From Acidobacteriota bacterium (GTDB lineage Bacteria; Acidobacteriota; Vicinamibacteria; Vicinamibacterales; 2-12-FULL-66-21): a stretch of 64,000 nt of DNA. The translations under genes were made by a program, and so were the position numbers. Positions 418 to 58,418 of the stretch are shown here, piece after piece; positions within the stretch are counted from its first letter, which is position 1; each line of letters opens with the position of its first letter. The stretch is from contig JBKPNQ010000138.1 in the NCBI GenBank assembly GCA_046732715.1, forward strand, positions 4,397 to 68,396, given 5' to 3'. The notes under the pieces are model-generated. The model saw only the letters and a program-made list of their open reading frames with translations, was not told the DNA's origin and did no database searches.

Positions 418-436
418 TCCGCTCTCTCCATTCGCT

Positions 437-489
437 AATCGCTCCGAGGCGCTTCGCCCCTCGGACTTCCCAACACGCTCGTTCGCCGC
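437..489 (-). repeat. 5'-leader hairpin element, copy F (ferritin leader)
   Basis: mRNA sense: GGCGAACGAGCGTGTTGGGAAGTCCGAGGGGCGAAGCGCCTCGGAGCGATT, 20 nt upstream of the ferritin TTG. Confidence 0.8.
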
Positions 490-717
490 GGTCGTACCGG
501 CGTTCAAACCGCCGCTCACAAGTGGAGTGCGACGCCTGGCCCGGATCCCGGATTACCGACGGACTCCCTCGTAGTATGACGTGTTCTCGCATGCGACGCA
601 CGTGACTGACAGTTTCCGCCTGAAGAAGGAAGGCTCGAGAGTAACCGTAACGCTCATCTTGACACCCTAAATGAGACGTGGCACCATGCACTCATCTTGG
701 TCTCCTAAGGGAGCGCT

Positions 718-4467: not shown

Positions 4468-5094
4468 TCATTGTCTGATGAAGCGCAGCACCTCGAAAGC
4501 CTTCCCTGATGGCAGCAGTTCCGTGCGGCGGAGCATGACGGTCAGTCCCTCATTCTCAGCCGCTTCGGTCAGGGCACCTGGATCGACAAAATGGAAAAGC
4601 GATTCGAGCGACTGCAGGATCGTGAATGGCGTCGGTGTCACTGCCGGACTCGAGGTCGAGGGGCGTTGGAGAACGACGCTGAGCACGCCGCCGCGCGTCA
4701 GCGTTCGCGCAACACGCCGGATCAGCGGCTGCCACGTGACGTATTCGAATACCAGCGCGGCATGGACGAGGTCGAATGCGTTCGCTTCAAGCCCCGTGTC
4801 GTTGACGTCCGCGCAACGAATCTTCAACTCGAATCCTGGATCCGGAAACGCATCGGCAAGTCGCTGAAGGTATGAGGCGTTGATGTCGATCACCGTCACG
4901 TGCTCCGTGACCGCGCGATCGACGTGCTCCAGACCGTTACCGGAGGAACAACCAAGCACCAGGAAGGTGCGCGGCCGCAGCTCGTCAAGCGCCTCGCGCA
5001 TCAACCGATTGAGCACGGCCCGCTGGTTGACCGACGGATGGCTCATATGACCGACATAGTCGGCCTCCGGGATGGCGAGCCAAGGATTGGTCAT
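4468..5094 (-). CDS. Class I SAM-dependent methyltransferase
   Basis: 208 aa. FLVLGCSSGNGLEH (motif I) and VTVIDIN. ATG start. Confidence 0.8.
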   Translation of the reverse strand: MTNPWLAIPEADYVGHMSHPSVNQRAVLNRLMREALDELRPRTFLVLGCSSGNGLEHVDRAVTEHVTVIDINASYLQRLADAFPDPGFELKIRCADVNDTGLEANAFDLVHAALVFEYVTWQPLIRRVARTLTRGGVLSVVLQRPSTSSPAVTPTPFTILQSLESLFHFVDPGALTEAAENEGLTVMLRRTELLPSGKAFEVLRFIRQ

Positions 5095-7905: not shown

Positions 7906-8376
7906 TCACTTGGGCGCCCCTGGCATCTCGGCGATCCGCACGATCCACTTGAACGCTTTGTCGACCCCATCTTTGGCCGCTTTATTCCAGTAGCCCGAGG
8001 CAACTCCTTTGATGTCCGTCTCGTGCTCGCCGTATCTGAGGTGCAGACGCACCATCGTGTCCCCCAGAGGTGTGACTGACGCTCCCCCGAATCCGCCTCC
8101 CGCATCGCGTCTCTCTCGAGCGATCACCTCGACAACCACGTTCGCGTCCTCAGCGCTCTGGACGATAGCAATCCCTGCCTTCTTACTGAGCGCCTCACGG
8201 ACGTCGCGGACCGAATCGAGACGGCCCTGCTCCTCTTCCGTCGGCGGCGTGGACTTCGCTTCGGCGGTGAAGACGAACACTCGCGGCGCCGGCGAGTCAG
8301 ACGATGTTTTACGGCTGGGCTGTTGGGACGTGCCGGCCAGAGCCAGCGCCAGCAGAAATACGCTGGACTTGAACAT
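7906..8376 (-). CDS. Secreted hypothetical protein
   Basis: Internal ATG 8376 preceded by GGGGAG. MFKSSVFLLALALAGTSQQ is a signal peptide. The upstream 59 codons of the track ORF cover a repeat element. Confidence 0.6.
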   Translation of the reverse strand: MFKSSVFLLALALAGTSQQPSRKTSSDSPAPRVFVFTAEAKSTPPTEEEQGRLDSVRDVREALSKKAGIAIVQSAEDANVVVEVIARERRDAGGGFGGASVTPLGDTMVRLHLRYGEHETDIKGVASGYWNKAAKDGVDKAFKWIVRIAEMPGAPK

Positions 8377-8380
8377 GACT

Positions 8381-8462
8381 ATCACTCCCCGCGATCGGCA
8401 GCGCTCGGCAATACTGATTTTAACCGAGGATCTTCGTCCCTCGGACTCCCGACACGCGCTCC
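8381..8462 (-). repeat. 5'-leader hairpin element, copy S (split by an insert of about 33 nt)
   Basis: mRNA sense: GCGTGTCGGGAGTCCGAGGGACGAAGATCCTCGG-[insert]-GGGAGTGATAGTC-ATG(8376). Confidence 0.7.
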
Positions 8463-8659
8463 GATCGCGTGGCTCGCACCACTCGCTCGCACCCTCGAAC
8501 CAGCGTTCGGGTTGTGTGAGACTGCTTCTATTGTCGCTGACCGAGCGTGACATTGATCCGCACGAAACTCTCCTCGCGGATCAACGCGACCAAGCACACG
8601 AGGACGACTCACTCTTCGGCGGCGACCGCTGGATGGGATTGACCGCGGGACCGGTGGAA

Positions 8660-13810: not shown

Positions 13811-14176
13811 TCAACGGGACTTCGAACGTGCGCTGCGACCCCCCTTGGTCTTCTTCGCTGAAAGAGCCTTCGCCGCAGTGTTTCGCCACGCGAGTGTCAT
13901 CGCCTCGCCGAGCATCTCTTCATCGACACGATCCAGGCGCACGGCAGTGCATCCCTGAACCCCCCACGCCCCATTCTCAGGTTTGAAGACGCCCGGAGCG
14001 TCCTTCACGAACCGCGCCTGCTCCTCCGGCATCAGCTTGACCATCCCCCACTGCATGTCCGCATGCAGGGTCGCGAAGATCCGGCCGTTGATGCGAAAGT
14101 CGGGATGGTCCATGTGCGACGACTCGATGGCATCCTTCATTCCCAATGCAATTCGACGAAAGTCGTCAGCGGTCAT
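13811..14176 (-). CDS. MmcQ/YjbR family DNA-binding protein
   Basis: 121 aa. HMDHPDFRINGRIFATL...MVKLMPEEQ is typical of MmcQ/YjbR. Basic C-terminal tail KKTKGGRSARSKSR. Confidence 0.8.
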   Translation of the reverse strand: MTADDFRRIALGMKDAIESSHMDHPDFRINGRIFATLHADMQWGMVKLMPEEQARFVKDAPGVFKPENGAWGVQGCTAVRLDRVDEEMLGEAMTLAWRNTAAKALSAKKTKGGRSARSKSR

Positions 14177-14178
14177 TA

Positions 14179-14229
14179 ATCACTCCGAGCGGCTTCGCCC
14201 CTCGGACTCCCGTACACGCTCACTCGCGG
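14179..14229 (-). repeat. 5'-leader hairpin element, copy M
   Basis: mRNA sense: GAGCGTGTACGGGAGTCCGAGGGGCGAAGCCGCTCGGAGTGATTA-ATG(14176). Confidence 0.8.
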
Positions 14230-14246
14230 AGCCCCCAAGCCCACTC

Positions 14247-14301
14247 TGCCCTTCGACGATGCTCAGGGCGTCCCGAGCGAAGTCGGCGGACGCTCACGTG
14301 G
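14247..14301 (+). repeat. REP/MITE-like imperfect palindrome, copy a, flanked by an 8-bp direct repeat
   Basis: CCCTTCGACGATGCTCAGGGCGTCCCGAGCGAAGTCGGCGG. GCCCACTC occurs at 14239-14246 and again at 14302-14309. Confidence 0.7.
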
Positions 14302-14370
14302 GCCCACTCGCGCGCTCGTTCGCCACTGTGGTACTCAGTTCGAAGCCAGTTGCATAGACTCGATCACTTA

Positions 14371-25410: not shown

Positions 25411-25457
25411 GATCACTCCGAGGGGCTTCGCGGCTCGGACTCCGCGACACGCCTCTA
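25411..25457 (-). repeat. 5'-leader hairpin element, copy P
   Basis: mRNA sense: GGCGTGTCGCGGAGTCCGAGCCGCGAAGCCCCTCGGAGTGATC-ATG(25410). Confidence 0.8.
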
Positions 25458-25461
25458 GTTT

Positions 25462-25998
25462 CTAGGTCGCTCCAGGAGCAGTGACCCGCGCATCGAAGAG
25501 TGGGCTCGCGATCAAGTCATGAAATCCCGGCTTGTAGCCCGCCTGCCGCACGAAGGCGGCGACGTGAGCCCAGTGCCGCAACTCGTGCGTCACGGCCTGA
25601 AGGATCATCTTGCGAGCGGTCACTATGCGGCTGTGGGTGCCAAACGACATCTCGCGCGGTGCCTCCCATTCCGAATCCGGGAACGACGCCAGCAGATCCC
25701 GCAGCGCGCGGCGGCTCTCGATCCCGAACGCAAACAGGGCCTCGACGTCGTCGGCAGCAATCGACGAGGTATCGGTTAGCGGTACCTGCAGGCAGCGCTC
25801 AACGTAACGCCTCTCTGCAGAGAATATGTGCCGAACCAGCTCGCCGACATTCCGGATGCGACCGCTGTTGTTGGGACCAAGATCGACGGACAGGGCACCC
25901 GGTCCGCTTTCGCGGAACCATCGGTGCCACTCCTCCCGTTCCCAATCAGAGTACGCCAGAAGATCGTCGAGCGTAAATGCAATCGCCATGATGGACAT
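25462..25998 (-). CDS. DinB family protein
   Basis: 178 aa. LVRHIFSAERRY...AVTHELRHWAHV. Confidence 0.8.
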   Translation of the reverse strand: MSIMAIAFTLDDLLAYSDWEREEWHRWFRESGPGALSVDLGPNNSGRIRNVGELVRHIFSAERRYVERCLQVPLTDTSSIAADDVEALFAFGIESRRALRDLLASFPDSEWEAPREMSFGTHSRIVTARKMILQAVTHELRHWAHVAAFVRQAGYKPGFHDLIASPLFDARVTAPGAT

Positions 25999-46358: not shown

Positions 46359-46879
46359 GAACGCTCGATCAATCCTGCCTGGAGGCCGCCGCGGCGGCGC
46401 CACCGTCGTTCGACGCGGGCCATCCGTCCGCGGTCATCGGCGGAGTCGTGATCGTAACCGAGCAGGTGCAGAAGTCCATGGAGTGCGAGGACCCGCAGCT
46501 CAGCCTGATACGAATGCCCGGCCTCGCGGCCCTGCCGGCGCGCGACACCGGTGGCGATGACGATGTCTCCGAGGAACTTCGCGCCCCCGAATCCGCTCGT
46601 CGACAGGCTCGCCGAAGCCCGGGATCCGTCCGCCGGAAACGACAGGACGTCCGTTGCGGAGCTCTTGTGCCGGTAGCGTGAATTGAGTTTGTGAATATGC
46701 GCATCGGTGACGAGCGCGACGGCCACGTCGCCGCGAACGCGCGCCGGGCAGACGTCCGACAACCATCGCGCCAGCCCGCCGTCCCGCAGCGCGCGGCCGC
46801 ACCCGTCCGACACGGTCACGTGGAGACCGCGAGTCGCGCTGCCGCCGGATCGCCGCAGGCGTCTACTGTCGTGATCCAC
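46355..46879 (-). CDS. ybeY: rRNA maturation RNase YbeY
   Basis: TDVLSFP...[14 protein letters not shown] 46879 overlaps phoH by 17 nt. Alternative GTG at 46819. Confidence 0.9.
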
Positions 46880-57552: not shown

Positions 57553-58352
57553 TGTTCGTCGCGCTCGTGCGTCGTTCCTTCGCGCGTCATCGTGCCCTGA
57601 TCGGGGCGCTGACTGCGCTGCTCTCGGCTTTTCAGATCCTCGACATTGTCGTCGCCTACAAGCTTCAGCAGAATGCGGCCTACTCGCAATTCGCCGCGAT
57701 GGTACCGGCGTTCATCCAGGAAGCCATGGGCGGAGCGCTGGTCGGGACGTTTCTTGGCGCGATTGCAGTGGGCTTCGTCCACCCACTCGTCATGCTGTCG
57801 CTGTCCTGTGCGGCAATCTATCTCGCCAGCGAACCCGCGGGTGAGGTCGAGGAAGGGCTGGTGGACCTCGTCGTCGCCCGACCGGTGCCGAGGCACGTGA
57901 TCGTTTCACGGTCGATGGTGGTGTACGTGACCGGGACGTTCGTGGTCGTGGCTGCGATGTTCGCAACGAGCCGCGCGACCGTGCATTGGCTGATGCCGGG
58001 GCAGGCGCACGTGGTCGCGGCGTCGCGCCTTGCCTGGCTGGCTTTCAACCTGCTCGCCATCGTCTGGTCGCTCGGCGCTGCCGCTCTGGCCTTCGCGTCG
58101 CACGTCCGCGAACGCGCGCGCGCGGCCGGGACTATCGCGCTGCTCGCAGTGTTTCTGTATCTGCTGCAGTTCGGTGCCGCCGCCTGGGAGCCGTTACGAC
58201 CGTTCGCGCGGGTGTCGCCGTTCCACTACTACGCAACGATGCAAACGCTGATGGGCCAGGTGACGCCAGCGACACACATTGCGGGACTGCTGACTGCAGC
58301 GGTGATATTGCTTGGGGTTGCGTATGTTCTGTACGAACGCCGTGACCTGTAA
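57552..58352 (+). CDS. ABC-2 type transporter permease
   Basis: ATG 57552 overlaps the ATPase stop by 1 nt. 266 aa, about 6 TM helices. Confidence 0.7.
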   Translation: MFVALVRRSFARHRALIGALTALLSAFQILDIVVAYKLQQNAAYSQFAAMVPAFIQEAMGGALVGTFLGAIAVGFVHPLVMLSLSCAAIYLASEPAGEVEEGLVDLVVARPVPRHVIVSRSMVVYVTGTFVVVAAMFATSRATVHWLMPGQAHVVAASRLAWLAFNLLAIVWSLGAAALAFASHVRERARAAGTIALLAVFLYLLQFGAAAWEPLRPFARVSPFHYYATMQTLMGQVTPATHIAGLLTAAVILLGVAYVLYERRDL

Positions 58353-58418
58353 ATCAACAATCAACCCCTCGATGTTGCTCGGGGCTGACCCTGAGCGAAG
58401 TCGAAGGGTCGGCAATCA
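58352..58418. repeat. Composite element: (AATCAAC)2, REP-like palindrome (copy c), CAATCA
   Basis: aatcaac aatcaac CCCCTCGATGTTGCTCGGGGCTGACCCTGAGCGAAGTCGAAGGG tcgg caatca. Lies between convergent genes. Confidence 0.75.

Follow-up and report, generated by a model that had tools for sequence, protein, structure and literature searches.

A stretch of 64,000 nucleotides (nt) from an Acidobacteriota bacterium of the order Vicinamibacterales (assembly GCA_046732715.1, contig JBKPNQ010000138.1, positions 4,397 to 68,396), referred to below as the window, carries four minus-strand genes preceded by the same hairpin-forming sequence: a ferritin gene, a gene for a secreted protein, mmcQ and pcm. A sequence-only reading of this DNA described the shared block as a portable leader whose hairpin partly hides the Shine-Dalgarno (SD) sequence, and offered an RNA thermometer, a protein-responsive element or a repetitive extragenic palindromic (REP) type of element with its own SD as possible identities. 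[quoted passage not shown] The motif is not a dedicated translational switch.

The core of the motif, TCCGAG-N3-CGAAG-N3-CTCGG, has exactly four matches in the window, all on the minus strand (444-465, 8424-8445, 14185-14206 and 25418-25439). The number expected by chance is 0.20, and none of 100 dinucleotide-preserving shuffles reached four, so that the presence of one leader at four genes, as first described, is well founded. The flanking GCGTGT-N-GGGAG and the outer stem are also common to all four copies, the full common block reading GAGCGTGT-N-GGGAGTCCGAG, followed by 3 nt, CGAAG, 3 nt and CTCGG. A fifth match to the core, with 2 mismatches, at 46569 was rejected as a chance occurrence, being located within coding sequence and devoid of the flanks. 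Across the whole window, nhmmer with a profile built from relatives found only the four copies. The covariance-model and Rfam searches suggested by the sequence-only reading gave the same picture. A covariance model whose training set included the four window copies, run over the whole window with filters off, retrieved only these four, the next match (E=0.15) being their antisense. No Rfam family reached its gathering threshold across the whole window, and permissive E-values around the mmcQ copy yielded only a chance miRNA match (E=5.7). According to Pfam, three of the downstream genes encode ferritin, YjbR/MmcQ and PCMT proteins, while the fourth encodes a 156-aa protein without a family; upstream, a tannase gene precedes mmcQ and a DinB-family gene (dinB) precedes pcm.

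The four copies in the window

The coordinates reported at first were too short. The repeat spans approximately 14177-14351, 436-516, 8414-8530 and 25411-25464, and the length of the copies ranges from about 54 to 175 nt.

The mmcQ copy (14177..14351, minus strand) is a full-length member of the group of copies designated subfamily A, as supported by nhmmer (14176-14333, E 5e-20), the covariance model (63 bits) and alignment with relatives. Apart from a remnant of spacer, it fills the interval between the tannase stop codon (TAG, 14373-14371) and the mmcQ ATG (14176-14174). Its parts are arranged in the order left end AACTGGCTTCGAAC, GGCGAACGAGCGCGCGAGTGGGCC, a nested insert, GCGAGTGAGCGTGT, terminal hairpin and tail AGTGATTA. 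The terminal hairpin, UCCGAG-GGGC-GAA-GCCG-CUCGGA (14184..14207, minus strand), was delimited by sequence and folding, and a single G-G mismatch interrupts the 9-10 bp stem of the consensus. The SD-like tail GGAGTGAT (14179..14186, minus strand), recognized from its sequence, ends 2 nt before the ATG, and its leading GG corresponds to the final two bases of the 3' arm of the hairpin.

The pcm copy (25411..25464, minus strand; nhmmer E 2.3e-8; covariance model 54 bits) is a mini element of 54 nt, in which the left terminus is joined to the right module, and it occupies the entire dinB-pcm spacer. dinB has its stop codon in the left TAG of this copy (25464-25462), and a single nucleotide separates the tail GGAGTGAT (25419-25412) from the pcm ATG (25410-25408).

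At the other two genes the arrangement is different. The ferritin copy (436..516, minus strand; nhmmer E 9.5e-12; covariance model 58 bits) is a short subfamily A member with an internal deletion, whose right end is AGCGATTA(G) at 436/435. The ferritin gene has its own SD, GGAGAGAG, at 429-422, and a TTG start at 414-412, 22 nt downstream of the copy. The secreted-protein copy (8414..8530, minus strand; nhmmer E 2.9e-9; covariance model 47 bits) belongs to the canonical type, the commonest in the family, and runs from the left end TAGAAGCAGTCTCACA to the right end TTAAAATCAG (8414). The gene for the secreted protein of 156 aa also has its own SD, GGGGAGTGAT, at 8390-8381, and its start codon is the ATG at 8376-8374, rather than at 8375 as originally placed. 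What had been taken for an insert of 33 nt within this copy is native 5' untranslated region (UTR), the element ending at TTAAAATCAG, the usual right end of the family.

A GGAG linked to the hairpin and located at SD distance from the start codon is thus found only at mmcQ and pcm, not in three copies as had been proposed. Similarly, the overlap of the 3' arm with the GGA of the SD is real at mmcQ and pcm, where the last two or three bases of the arm fall within GGAG, but the ferritin and secreted-protein genes use their own SD.

Two further observations concern these copies. The insert nested in the mmcQ copy (14248..14290, minus strand; 43 nt), recognized by its sequence, is another palindromic repeat (..GCCCTGAGCATCGTCGAAGGGC). 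A palindromic repeat different from the one under study (..GACCCTGAGCGAAGTCGAAGGGTC..) is located at 58362-58412 (plus strand), in a 67-nt gap between convergent open reading frames (ORFs) that end at 58352 and 58420. The module of this second repeat is the one nested at 14248-14290 and recurs at 58389-58408 and in four loci from relatives (L024, L068, L085 and L093; L-numbers designate the loci from relatives used in the comparisons), so that at least two REP-like families are present in this genome. In addition, the ORF list extends the secreted-protein ORF through the repeat (7906-8553, minus strand), giving 215 aa counted from an ATG at 8553. In automated annotation, this family probably tends to create spurious N-terminal extensions or hypothetical ORFs.

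A repeat family with a right-end hairpin

A scan of 185,579 species genomes with the pattern GTCCGAG-N3-CGAAG-N3-CTCGG matched at least 116 stretches, and about 100 of the 116 listed belong to metagenome-assembled genomes (MAGs) of Vicinamibacterales or other Acidobacteriota. A second scan, of metagenomes and limited to AGTGA tails, matched at least 120 stretches, with 111 distinct copies among those listed; the consensus right end of subfamily A among these 111 is GGAGTGAT, the tail seen at mmcQ and pcm. Altogether, the terminal module is an extragenic palindrome of 21-23 nt, of which more than 200 copies were retrieved. Genomes of Vicinamibacterales and metagenomes of soil contain the repeat in abundance. 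Viral contigs were also scanned; none held a copy, which gives no indication of a phage origin. In the literature on Vicinamibacter, Luteitalea and Acidobacteria, no account of this family was found.

Among the matches listed, the variable triplets of the core are almost always GGG and CCC in the relatives. The consensus is therefore a perfect hairpin, CCGAGGGGC-GAA-GCCCCTCGG, with a 9-bp stem (GAGGGGC-GAA-GCCCCTC), which forms the right terminus together with a tail of 6 to 10 nt. It follows that the "variable G/C-rich loop" of the window copies is the inner half of a stem. Of the proposal that the stem is kept while the loop varies, the outer stem is shared by the four copies, but the supposed loop consists of inner stem with mismatches and displays no covariation.

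Comparison of 160 nt of upstream sequence revealed a longer element, of which the hairpin makes up no more than the right-end module: a string of G+C-rich hairpins with GCGAAGC tips and a short left terminus that starts with TAG. The canonical type reads (C)TAG-AAGCTATCTCATAAACC..GCGAGCGAGC..GCGAGCGAGCCACGCGA-CCGGAGCGCGCCGGCGAAGCGGCGCGCGAGAGAGCGTGT-N-GGGGAGTCCGAGGGGCGAAGCCCCTCGG-ATAAGAC-TAG, and subfamily A reads TAG-AACTGGTTTCAAAACCGAGTAC..GGCGAACGAGCGCGCGAGTGAGCCCACGCGAGCGGAGTGGGGC-N4-GGGGCCCCGCGAGCGAGCGTGT-N-GGGGAGTCC..CTCGG-AGTGAT-TA. The tail is therefore ATAAGAC-TAG in the former and AGTGAT-TA in the latter. In the relatives, copies are 88 to about 320 nt long, their differences being due to internal loss of sequence and to other palindromic modules nested within them, and they occur singly, in tandem or as inverted pairs, with tandem or mosaic arrangements in L008, L064, L217 and L234. 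Head-to-tail tandems were observed at L064 (7673-7896), L008 (3341-3580), L217 (51-211) and L234 (816-1008), as well as in L112, L019 and L088; at the tandem junction of L064, the right-end ATGAGAC and the next GTCTCAT make an extra palindrome around TGGAAGCC.

The resemblance of the motif centre to the GCGAAGC mini-hairpin, already remarked upon from the window alone, extends to the whole family, in which middle and terminal hairpins are tipped by GCGAAGC. Such tips can be seen at 14192-14198 in the window and in the internal GCGAGCCG-GCGAAG-CGGCTCGC of L114 and L125. The middle hairpin has compensatory variants between subfamilies (GCGAGCCG/CGGCTCGC versus GCGCGCCG/CGGCGCGC). GCGAAGC has been described as an extraordinarily stable DNA mini-hairpin (PMC13037366).

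The terminal hairpin has been kept across the subfamilies, which fits a role in the element itself. In an alignment of 48 distinct variants, made with MAFFT without structure fitting, 92% of the cells of the 10-pair helix are paired, and 4 of the 10 pairs have changed on both sides, such as A-U to G-C and G-C to A-U in the CCGGGGGAC..GUCCCCCGG variants. The observed covariation score was reached by none of 500 shuffles. For a 50-nt construct of the consensus, the fold has -22.7 kcal/mol (z = -3.5); it contains the perfect stem and pairs only the GG(A) of the SD. In contrast, the folds of the window copies are no better than those of shuffled sequences (z of -1.0, -1.3 and -1.8). A 68-nt construct containing the mmcQ hairpin gives -25.4 kcal/mol with z -1.0, the whole mmcQ element gives z = -0.75, and a longer construct of the secreted-protein copy gives z -3.0; the minimum-energy fold of the pcm copy does not use the proposed stem. 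The inner stem has decayed differently in each copy (GGGGC/GCCGC, GGGGC/GCGCC, GGGAC/GATCC and GCCGC/GCCCC). Covariation across the family, combined with decay in the window, leads to the conclusion that the hairpin matters to the element family and is not maintained in this genome.

These properties bear directly on the idea of a dedicated cis-regulatory RNA, thermometer-like or bound by a protein or ligand, in which the hairpin would hide the SD of a four-gene regulon until a signal arrives. RNA thermometers such as ROSE and fourU likewise have a 3' arm that overlaps the SD just upstream of the start codon, as seen with GGAG at mmcQ and pcm, and some compensatory changes accompany the conservation of the hairpin among subfamilies. 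Moreover, all four window copies are sense-oriented upstream of genes. However, the consensus stem, at about -22 kcal/mol, is far too stable for a thermometer and pairs only GG(A). Neither the consensus fold nor the window folds display the weakly SD-pairing, melting helix characteristic of thermometers. Unlike these, the family combines a stable and perfect consensus stem with random decay in the window, occurrence in both orientations, unrelated genes and empty sites in close orthologues. The folds of the window copies are not superior to those of shuffles, and the pcm copy lacks the proposed stem. The distribution of the copies, considered below, argues against the same idea.

Empty sites, filled sites and gene borders

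Orthologues of pcm and mmcQ were gathered at graded identity, and their contigs were compared. For pcm, the site is empty in L238 and L249, whose proteins are 88% identical and in which dinB and pcm overlap (..gcgATGAcc), as well as in L239 (84%), with the junction TGA-ggagcttt-ATG. It is filled by the mini element in the window and in L247 (98% identical pcm), in which dinB is a few codons shorter and ends in the TAG of the element. A longer, decayed copy occupies the same place before the ATG in L248 and L237 (89-90%), without dinB. In these two loci (~1380-1500 in L237 and 580-700 in L248) pcm lies beside a divergent DUF1326 gene, and the loss of dinB may be a repeat-associated rearrangement. 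The overall pattern, as read from these contigs, fits a single insertion in an ancestor of the window, L247 and the L237 group. Among filled pcm orthologues, CCTCGGAGT[G/A]ATC-ATG is invariant. The 5' arm and the inner stem have accumulated uncompensated differences, and one nucleotide of the 3' arm is deleted in L247. Orthologous copies thus keep the SD tail and lose complementarity, which speaks against a switch operating by pairing.

For mmcQ, the empty sites of L243 and L244 (89%) consist of the tannase TAG, a 24-nt spacer with GGGAG and the ATG, and in L245 (88%) the stop TAA overlaps the ATG. In the window, the TAG is followed by a remnant of that spacer of 19 to 20 nt, by the element of about 175 nt and by the ATG. 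A more distant Vicinamibacterales MAG (L246, DASTVZ010000055.1, 80%) has at positions 1-53 a pristine copy: its stem is perfect and its tail, AGTGATT, adjoins the mmcQ ATG directly. Either the element inserted at this very point a second time and independently, or an old insertion has disappeared from the closer relatives.

Comparison with these orthologues shows that the copies at mmcQ and pcm are insertions, with closer relatives that lack the element at these places, and that the native SD or start-stop overlap has been displaced by the element. To judge from its composition and spacing, GGAGTGAT most likely acts as the working ribosome-binding site at both genes. Among the identities first proposed for the motif, that of a REP-type element carrying its own SD is therefore borne out, both by the multicopy end module and by the empty sites, which show the takeover of the SD position.

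The position of the copies relative to genes was analysed by counting border offsets from the 3' end of the hairpin, with genes called by a heuristic based on ORFs and third-position G+C content (GC3). In the genome set (n=98 among the matches listed), the offsets to co-directional starts have their mode at +7 (8 copies), with 15 copies at +5 to +10, and a broad second group of 23 copies is found at +14 to +36, several of which have the gene's own SD (read by eye). At convergent stops in the same set, the mode is +6 (15 copies), with 25 copies at +5 to +7; the stop codon is here read in reverse from the CTA of the terminal CTAG. The metagenome set of AGTGA tails (n=103 usable among the copies listed) has starts at +7 (14 copies) and +8 (6 copies), 26 falling within +4 to +10. 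Convergent stops at +5 were counted in 16 copies of this set, in which TTA or TCA of AGTGAT-TA provides the reversed stop. Copies abutting convergent stops account for 25/98 in the genomes and about 17/103 in the metagenomes. In a few loci (L019, L027, L073 and L075) copies are adjacent to tRNA genes, at a distance of about 10 nt. The copies of L073 (~539-600) and L075 (~4975-5040) stop some 10 nt short of a gene recognized by eye as tRNA-Trp, and across the four loci copies either precede a tRNA gene in this way or lie beside the reverse complement of a tRNA. Near tRNA genes the element either is part of the tRNA precursor or carries a promoter.

The family therefore has a strong positional preference, which extends to both kinds of gene border and to both orientations with respect to genes. 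Copies without any preference for start codons would have refuted the leader idea, and the outcome is intermediate: a sharp preference does exist, but starts are not the sole border, convergent stops being used too. This distribution also speaks against a cis-regulatory RNA. The same end of the element abuts convergent stops in about a quarter of the copies, and tRNA genes in others, and the constant sense orientation in the 5' UTRs of a coherent gene set that such an RNA implies was found in neither set. The downstream genes are unrelated, in the window and in the relatives, where they include def, ftsY, argB and others (read by eye). Closer relatives run the same genes without the element, and no Rfam family matches it. 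The specific versions put forward initially, the thermometer and the protein-responsive switch, are not supported, in view of the convergent-stop and tRNA copies, the stability of the perfect consensus helix, the differently decayed window stems and the filled pcm sites that keep the tail and lose the stem pairing. A dedicated cis-regulatory RNA is consequently a most improbable explanation, to a large extent refuted by the orientation and context of the copies.

A different role at the RNA level, compatible with the repeat described here, would be that of a REP-like element retained by the host, the hairpin, transcribed in whichever orientation, punctuating transcripts at cistron borders by blocking 3'-5' exonucleases, by conferring differential stability within operons or by stalling terminating ribosomes. 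Copies are located exactly at cistron ends, between unidirectional and convergent genes, and the hairpin has compensatory changes. REPs themselves are found less than 20 bp from the 3' ends of ORFs and have been proposed to be post-transcriptional control sequences (PMC3733652). On the other hand, the stems are decaying in the window genome, which argues against strong selection here, and GCGAAGC is best known as a stable DNA mini-hairpin (PMC13037366), so that a role in single-stranded DNA (ssDNA) fits at least equally well. Host retention for such a purpose is possible, although rather unlikely.

Border precision also suggests, tentatively and with less than even confidence, that this is a selfish element adapted or targeted to gene borders, integrating exactly at start and stop codons with "self-healing" ends that offer stops on both sides and an SD on one. 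This suggestion is based on the sharpness of the +7 and +5/+6 modes and on the mmcQ ATG having possibly been struck in two lineages.

For the repeat family itself, the following picture emerges. Copies end up exactly at gene borders, by insertion or by survival. The left TAG is able to act as the stop codon of the upstream gene, and the right TTA or CTA as that of a convergent gene. In the AGTGAT subfamily, the final GG of the hairpin and the tail together form GGAGTGAT, located 5 to 8 nt from an abutting ATG and hence in the SD position. At mmcQ and pcm, the tail of the element would now serve as the ribosome-binding site, while at the ferritin and secreted-protein genes the copy would be a passenger in the 5' region. 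The hairpin would belong to the biology of the element, possibly functioning in ssDNA recognition during mobilisation or as a REP-like stabiliser of mRNA ends, and would not be a switch tuned to these four genes.

Mobility and relation to known repeats

The ends of the element provide some indications about its mobility. In about 32 of 51 copies (~63%) the left end is directly preceded by TA, and in most copies TA also comes after the tail. Copies of the canonical type have CTAG at either side. Overall, most copies are bordered by TA or CTAG at the two ends, and where the flanks are other than TA, left and right are for the most part not alike. No inverted repeat is shared by the two ends of subfamily A, GAACTGGTTTCAAAACC on the left and ..CTCGGAGTGAT on the right. 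In the canonical type, the only inverted repeat is a 7-bp pair, GTCTCAT/ATGAGAC, the left arm of which is set 8 nt in from the end. Subfamily A has a small GGTTTCAAAACC hairpin near its left end, and the right hairpin lies 6-10 nt from the other end. Finally, orthologous mmcQ and pcm sites are polymorphic for the presence of the element.

A classical MITE, moved by a TA-targeting DDE transposase in the manner of IS630/Tc1 or IS5, would account for the TA flanks, and TA, a rare dinucleotide in these G+C-rich genomes that clusters at stop codons and beside start codons, would in that case explain the preference for borders. The CTAG frame and 7-bp inverted repeat of the canonical type, as well as the presence/absence polymorphism, are in line with such a mode of transposition. 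However, subfamily A has no terminal inverted repeats, the canonical left arm is internal, the flanks beyond TA are mostly mismatched, and the junctions at the empty sites of L243 (ccaatc|ATG) and L238 (aagcg|ATG) lack TA. Subterminal hairpins without inverted repeats look more HUH/Y1-like, and transposition of the DDE kind is improbable.

Palindrome-associated elements of the IS200/IS605 type are moved by HUH/Y1 enzymes and are characterized by the lack of terminal inverted repeats, by subterminal hairpins and by insertion 3' of a fixed tetra- or pentanucleotide without duplication. The present element is similar in having hairpins near both ends and no inverted repeats. Unlike in those elements, TA or TAG is found on the left in only about 63% of copies, and the right flank is also non-random, being ATG or a reversed stop, a constraint not predicted by that mode of insertion. 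By analogy, the combination of subterminal hairpins, DNA-stable GCGAAGC tips and absence of inverted repeats may fit single-strand HUH/Y1 mobilisation, which is only a lead. Acidobacteria do encode Y1 transposases, of the TIRYT group (PMC3733652).

Several points weigh against reading the four leaders as ends of a mobile repeat that supplies an SD. The copies compared revealed neither a consistent target-site duplication nor convincing terminal inverted repeats. No transposase or mobilising gene is linked to the element in the loci around the copies, to which the search was confined, and the inverted pairs L191 and L167 flank ordinary genes. The evidence for the SD role of the tail consists of sequence and spacing. 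In the genome set, AGT-type tails at start-adjacent sites are not significantly enriched (4/13 versus 12/85, Fisher p=0.22), and therefore no enrichment of SD tails at start codons is claimed. Several start-adjacent copies have tails without a good SD, such as ATAAGAT-ATG, and SD function alone therefore cannot explain the +7 mode. The gene calls in the loci are crude and contain errors (L132, for instance, was miscalled). All four window copies face a start codon, a more one-sided distribution than in the relatives, although with n=4 this cannot be interpreted.

Some additional searches and candidates complete the description of these loci. Around the ferritin and secreted-protein copies, a simple scan found no sigma-70-like sites, and a terminator scan gave nothing useful. 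The 3' end of 16S rRNA was not present in the sequences examined. An integron attC site, a terminator and a small RNA gene were considered as identities for the motif and dropped: the housekeeping neighbours are not cassettes, no T-run follows the stem, and the inner modules vary.

Among described repeats, Neisseria REP2 and Borrelia IR-A/IR-B lack inverted repeats, contain internal stem-loops and are located directly upstream of genes, to which they bring a promoter and a ribosome-binding site as well as an ATG (Delihas 2011, PMC3184786). They are the closest functional precedent for a repeat with its own SD. As in their case, the present copies are intergenic repeats, comparable to the ~120-150 bp of those elements, with internal stem-loops, and they are placed upstream of unrelated genes, bringing a ribosome-binding site and forming the 5' UTR. 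REP2 supplies the ribosome-binding site just upstream of the start, and the same applies to part of this family (mmcQ and pcm; 26/103 of the AGTGA-tail copies). REP2 is described as also bringing a promoter and the ATG, and in a simple scan no promoter-like site was seen around two window copies. The family is found about as often at convergent stops as upstream of genes, and also near tRNA genes. The SD-like tail is present in only one subfamily, and the elements come from a different phylum, having been compared by description rather than by sequence.

REPs are characterized by a GTAG or CGTC tag and lie at a variable distance from the downstream ORF; their termini often supply TAG stops to the ORFs near whose 3' ends they are found (Di Nocera et al. 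2013, PMC3733652). The resemblance of the present family to REPs and BIMEs lies in the short G+C-rich palindromes, mosaics and tandem clusters, and in the location between unidirectional and convergent genes, near ORF ends. A terminus also supplies the TAG stop of a flanking ORF, in this case dinB. In contrast to REPs, there is no conserved GTAG or CGTC tag beside the stem, the nearest equivalent being a GT-N-G located 4-5 nt upstream of the stem, with any of A, C, G or T as its third base, and a large class of copies is found at a fixed 7 nt from a start codon. Unlike for REPs and BIMEs, no association with a REP-associated tyrosine transposase (RAYT) was found, a limited test that covered two inverted pairs.

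With bacterial MITEs, such as the Correia elements of Neisseria, the family shares its non-coding nature, a length of 50-300 nt, its multicopy and intergenic occurrence and its presence/absence polymorphism. Correia elements carry promoters and can donate expression signals to their neighbours (PMC3184786). The subfamily represented in the window differs from MITEs in having no convincing inverted repeats, no consistent target-site duplication and a mosaic of hairpins with nested modules. REP- or MITE-like repeats that donate expression signals are thus already known as a category. What is distinct here is the combination of a mosaic of GCGAAGC hairpins, ends with stop codons on both sides, an SD tail in one subfamily and placement at gene borders with nucleotide precision.

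Vicinamibacterales rank with the most abundant soil bacteria and with the least studied. The repeat accounts for recurrent "conserved leaders" and spurious ORFs in their genomes, and the covariance model can be used for masking and annotation. Thanks to the empty sites, it offers a clean natural case in which a repeat has overwritten the native ribosome-binding arrangement of a gene and provides a neighbour with its stop codon. If border targeting is true, the element would fit into tight operon junctions without polar damage, even replacing translational coupling, and many ribosome-binding sites and stop codons of Vicinamibacterales would have been rewritten by a repeat. If border precision reflects targeting rather than survivorship, it would imply an undescribed integration mechanism that reads the contexts of start and stop codons.

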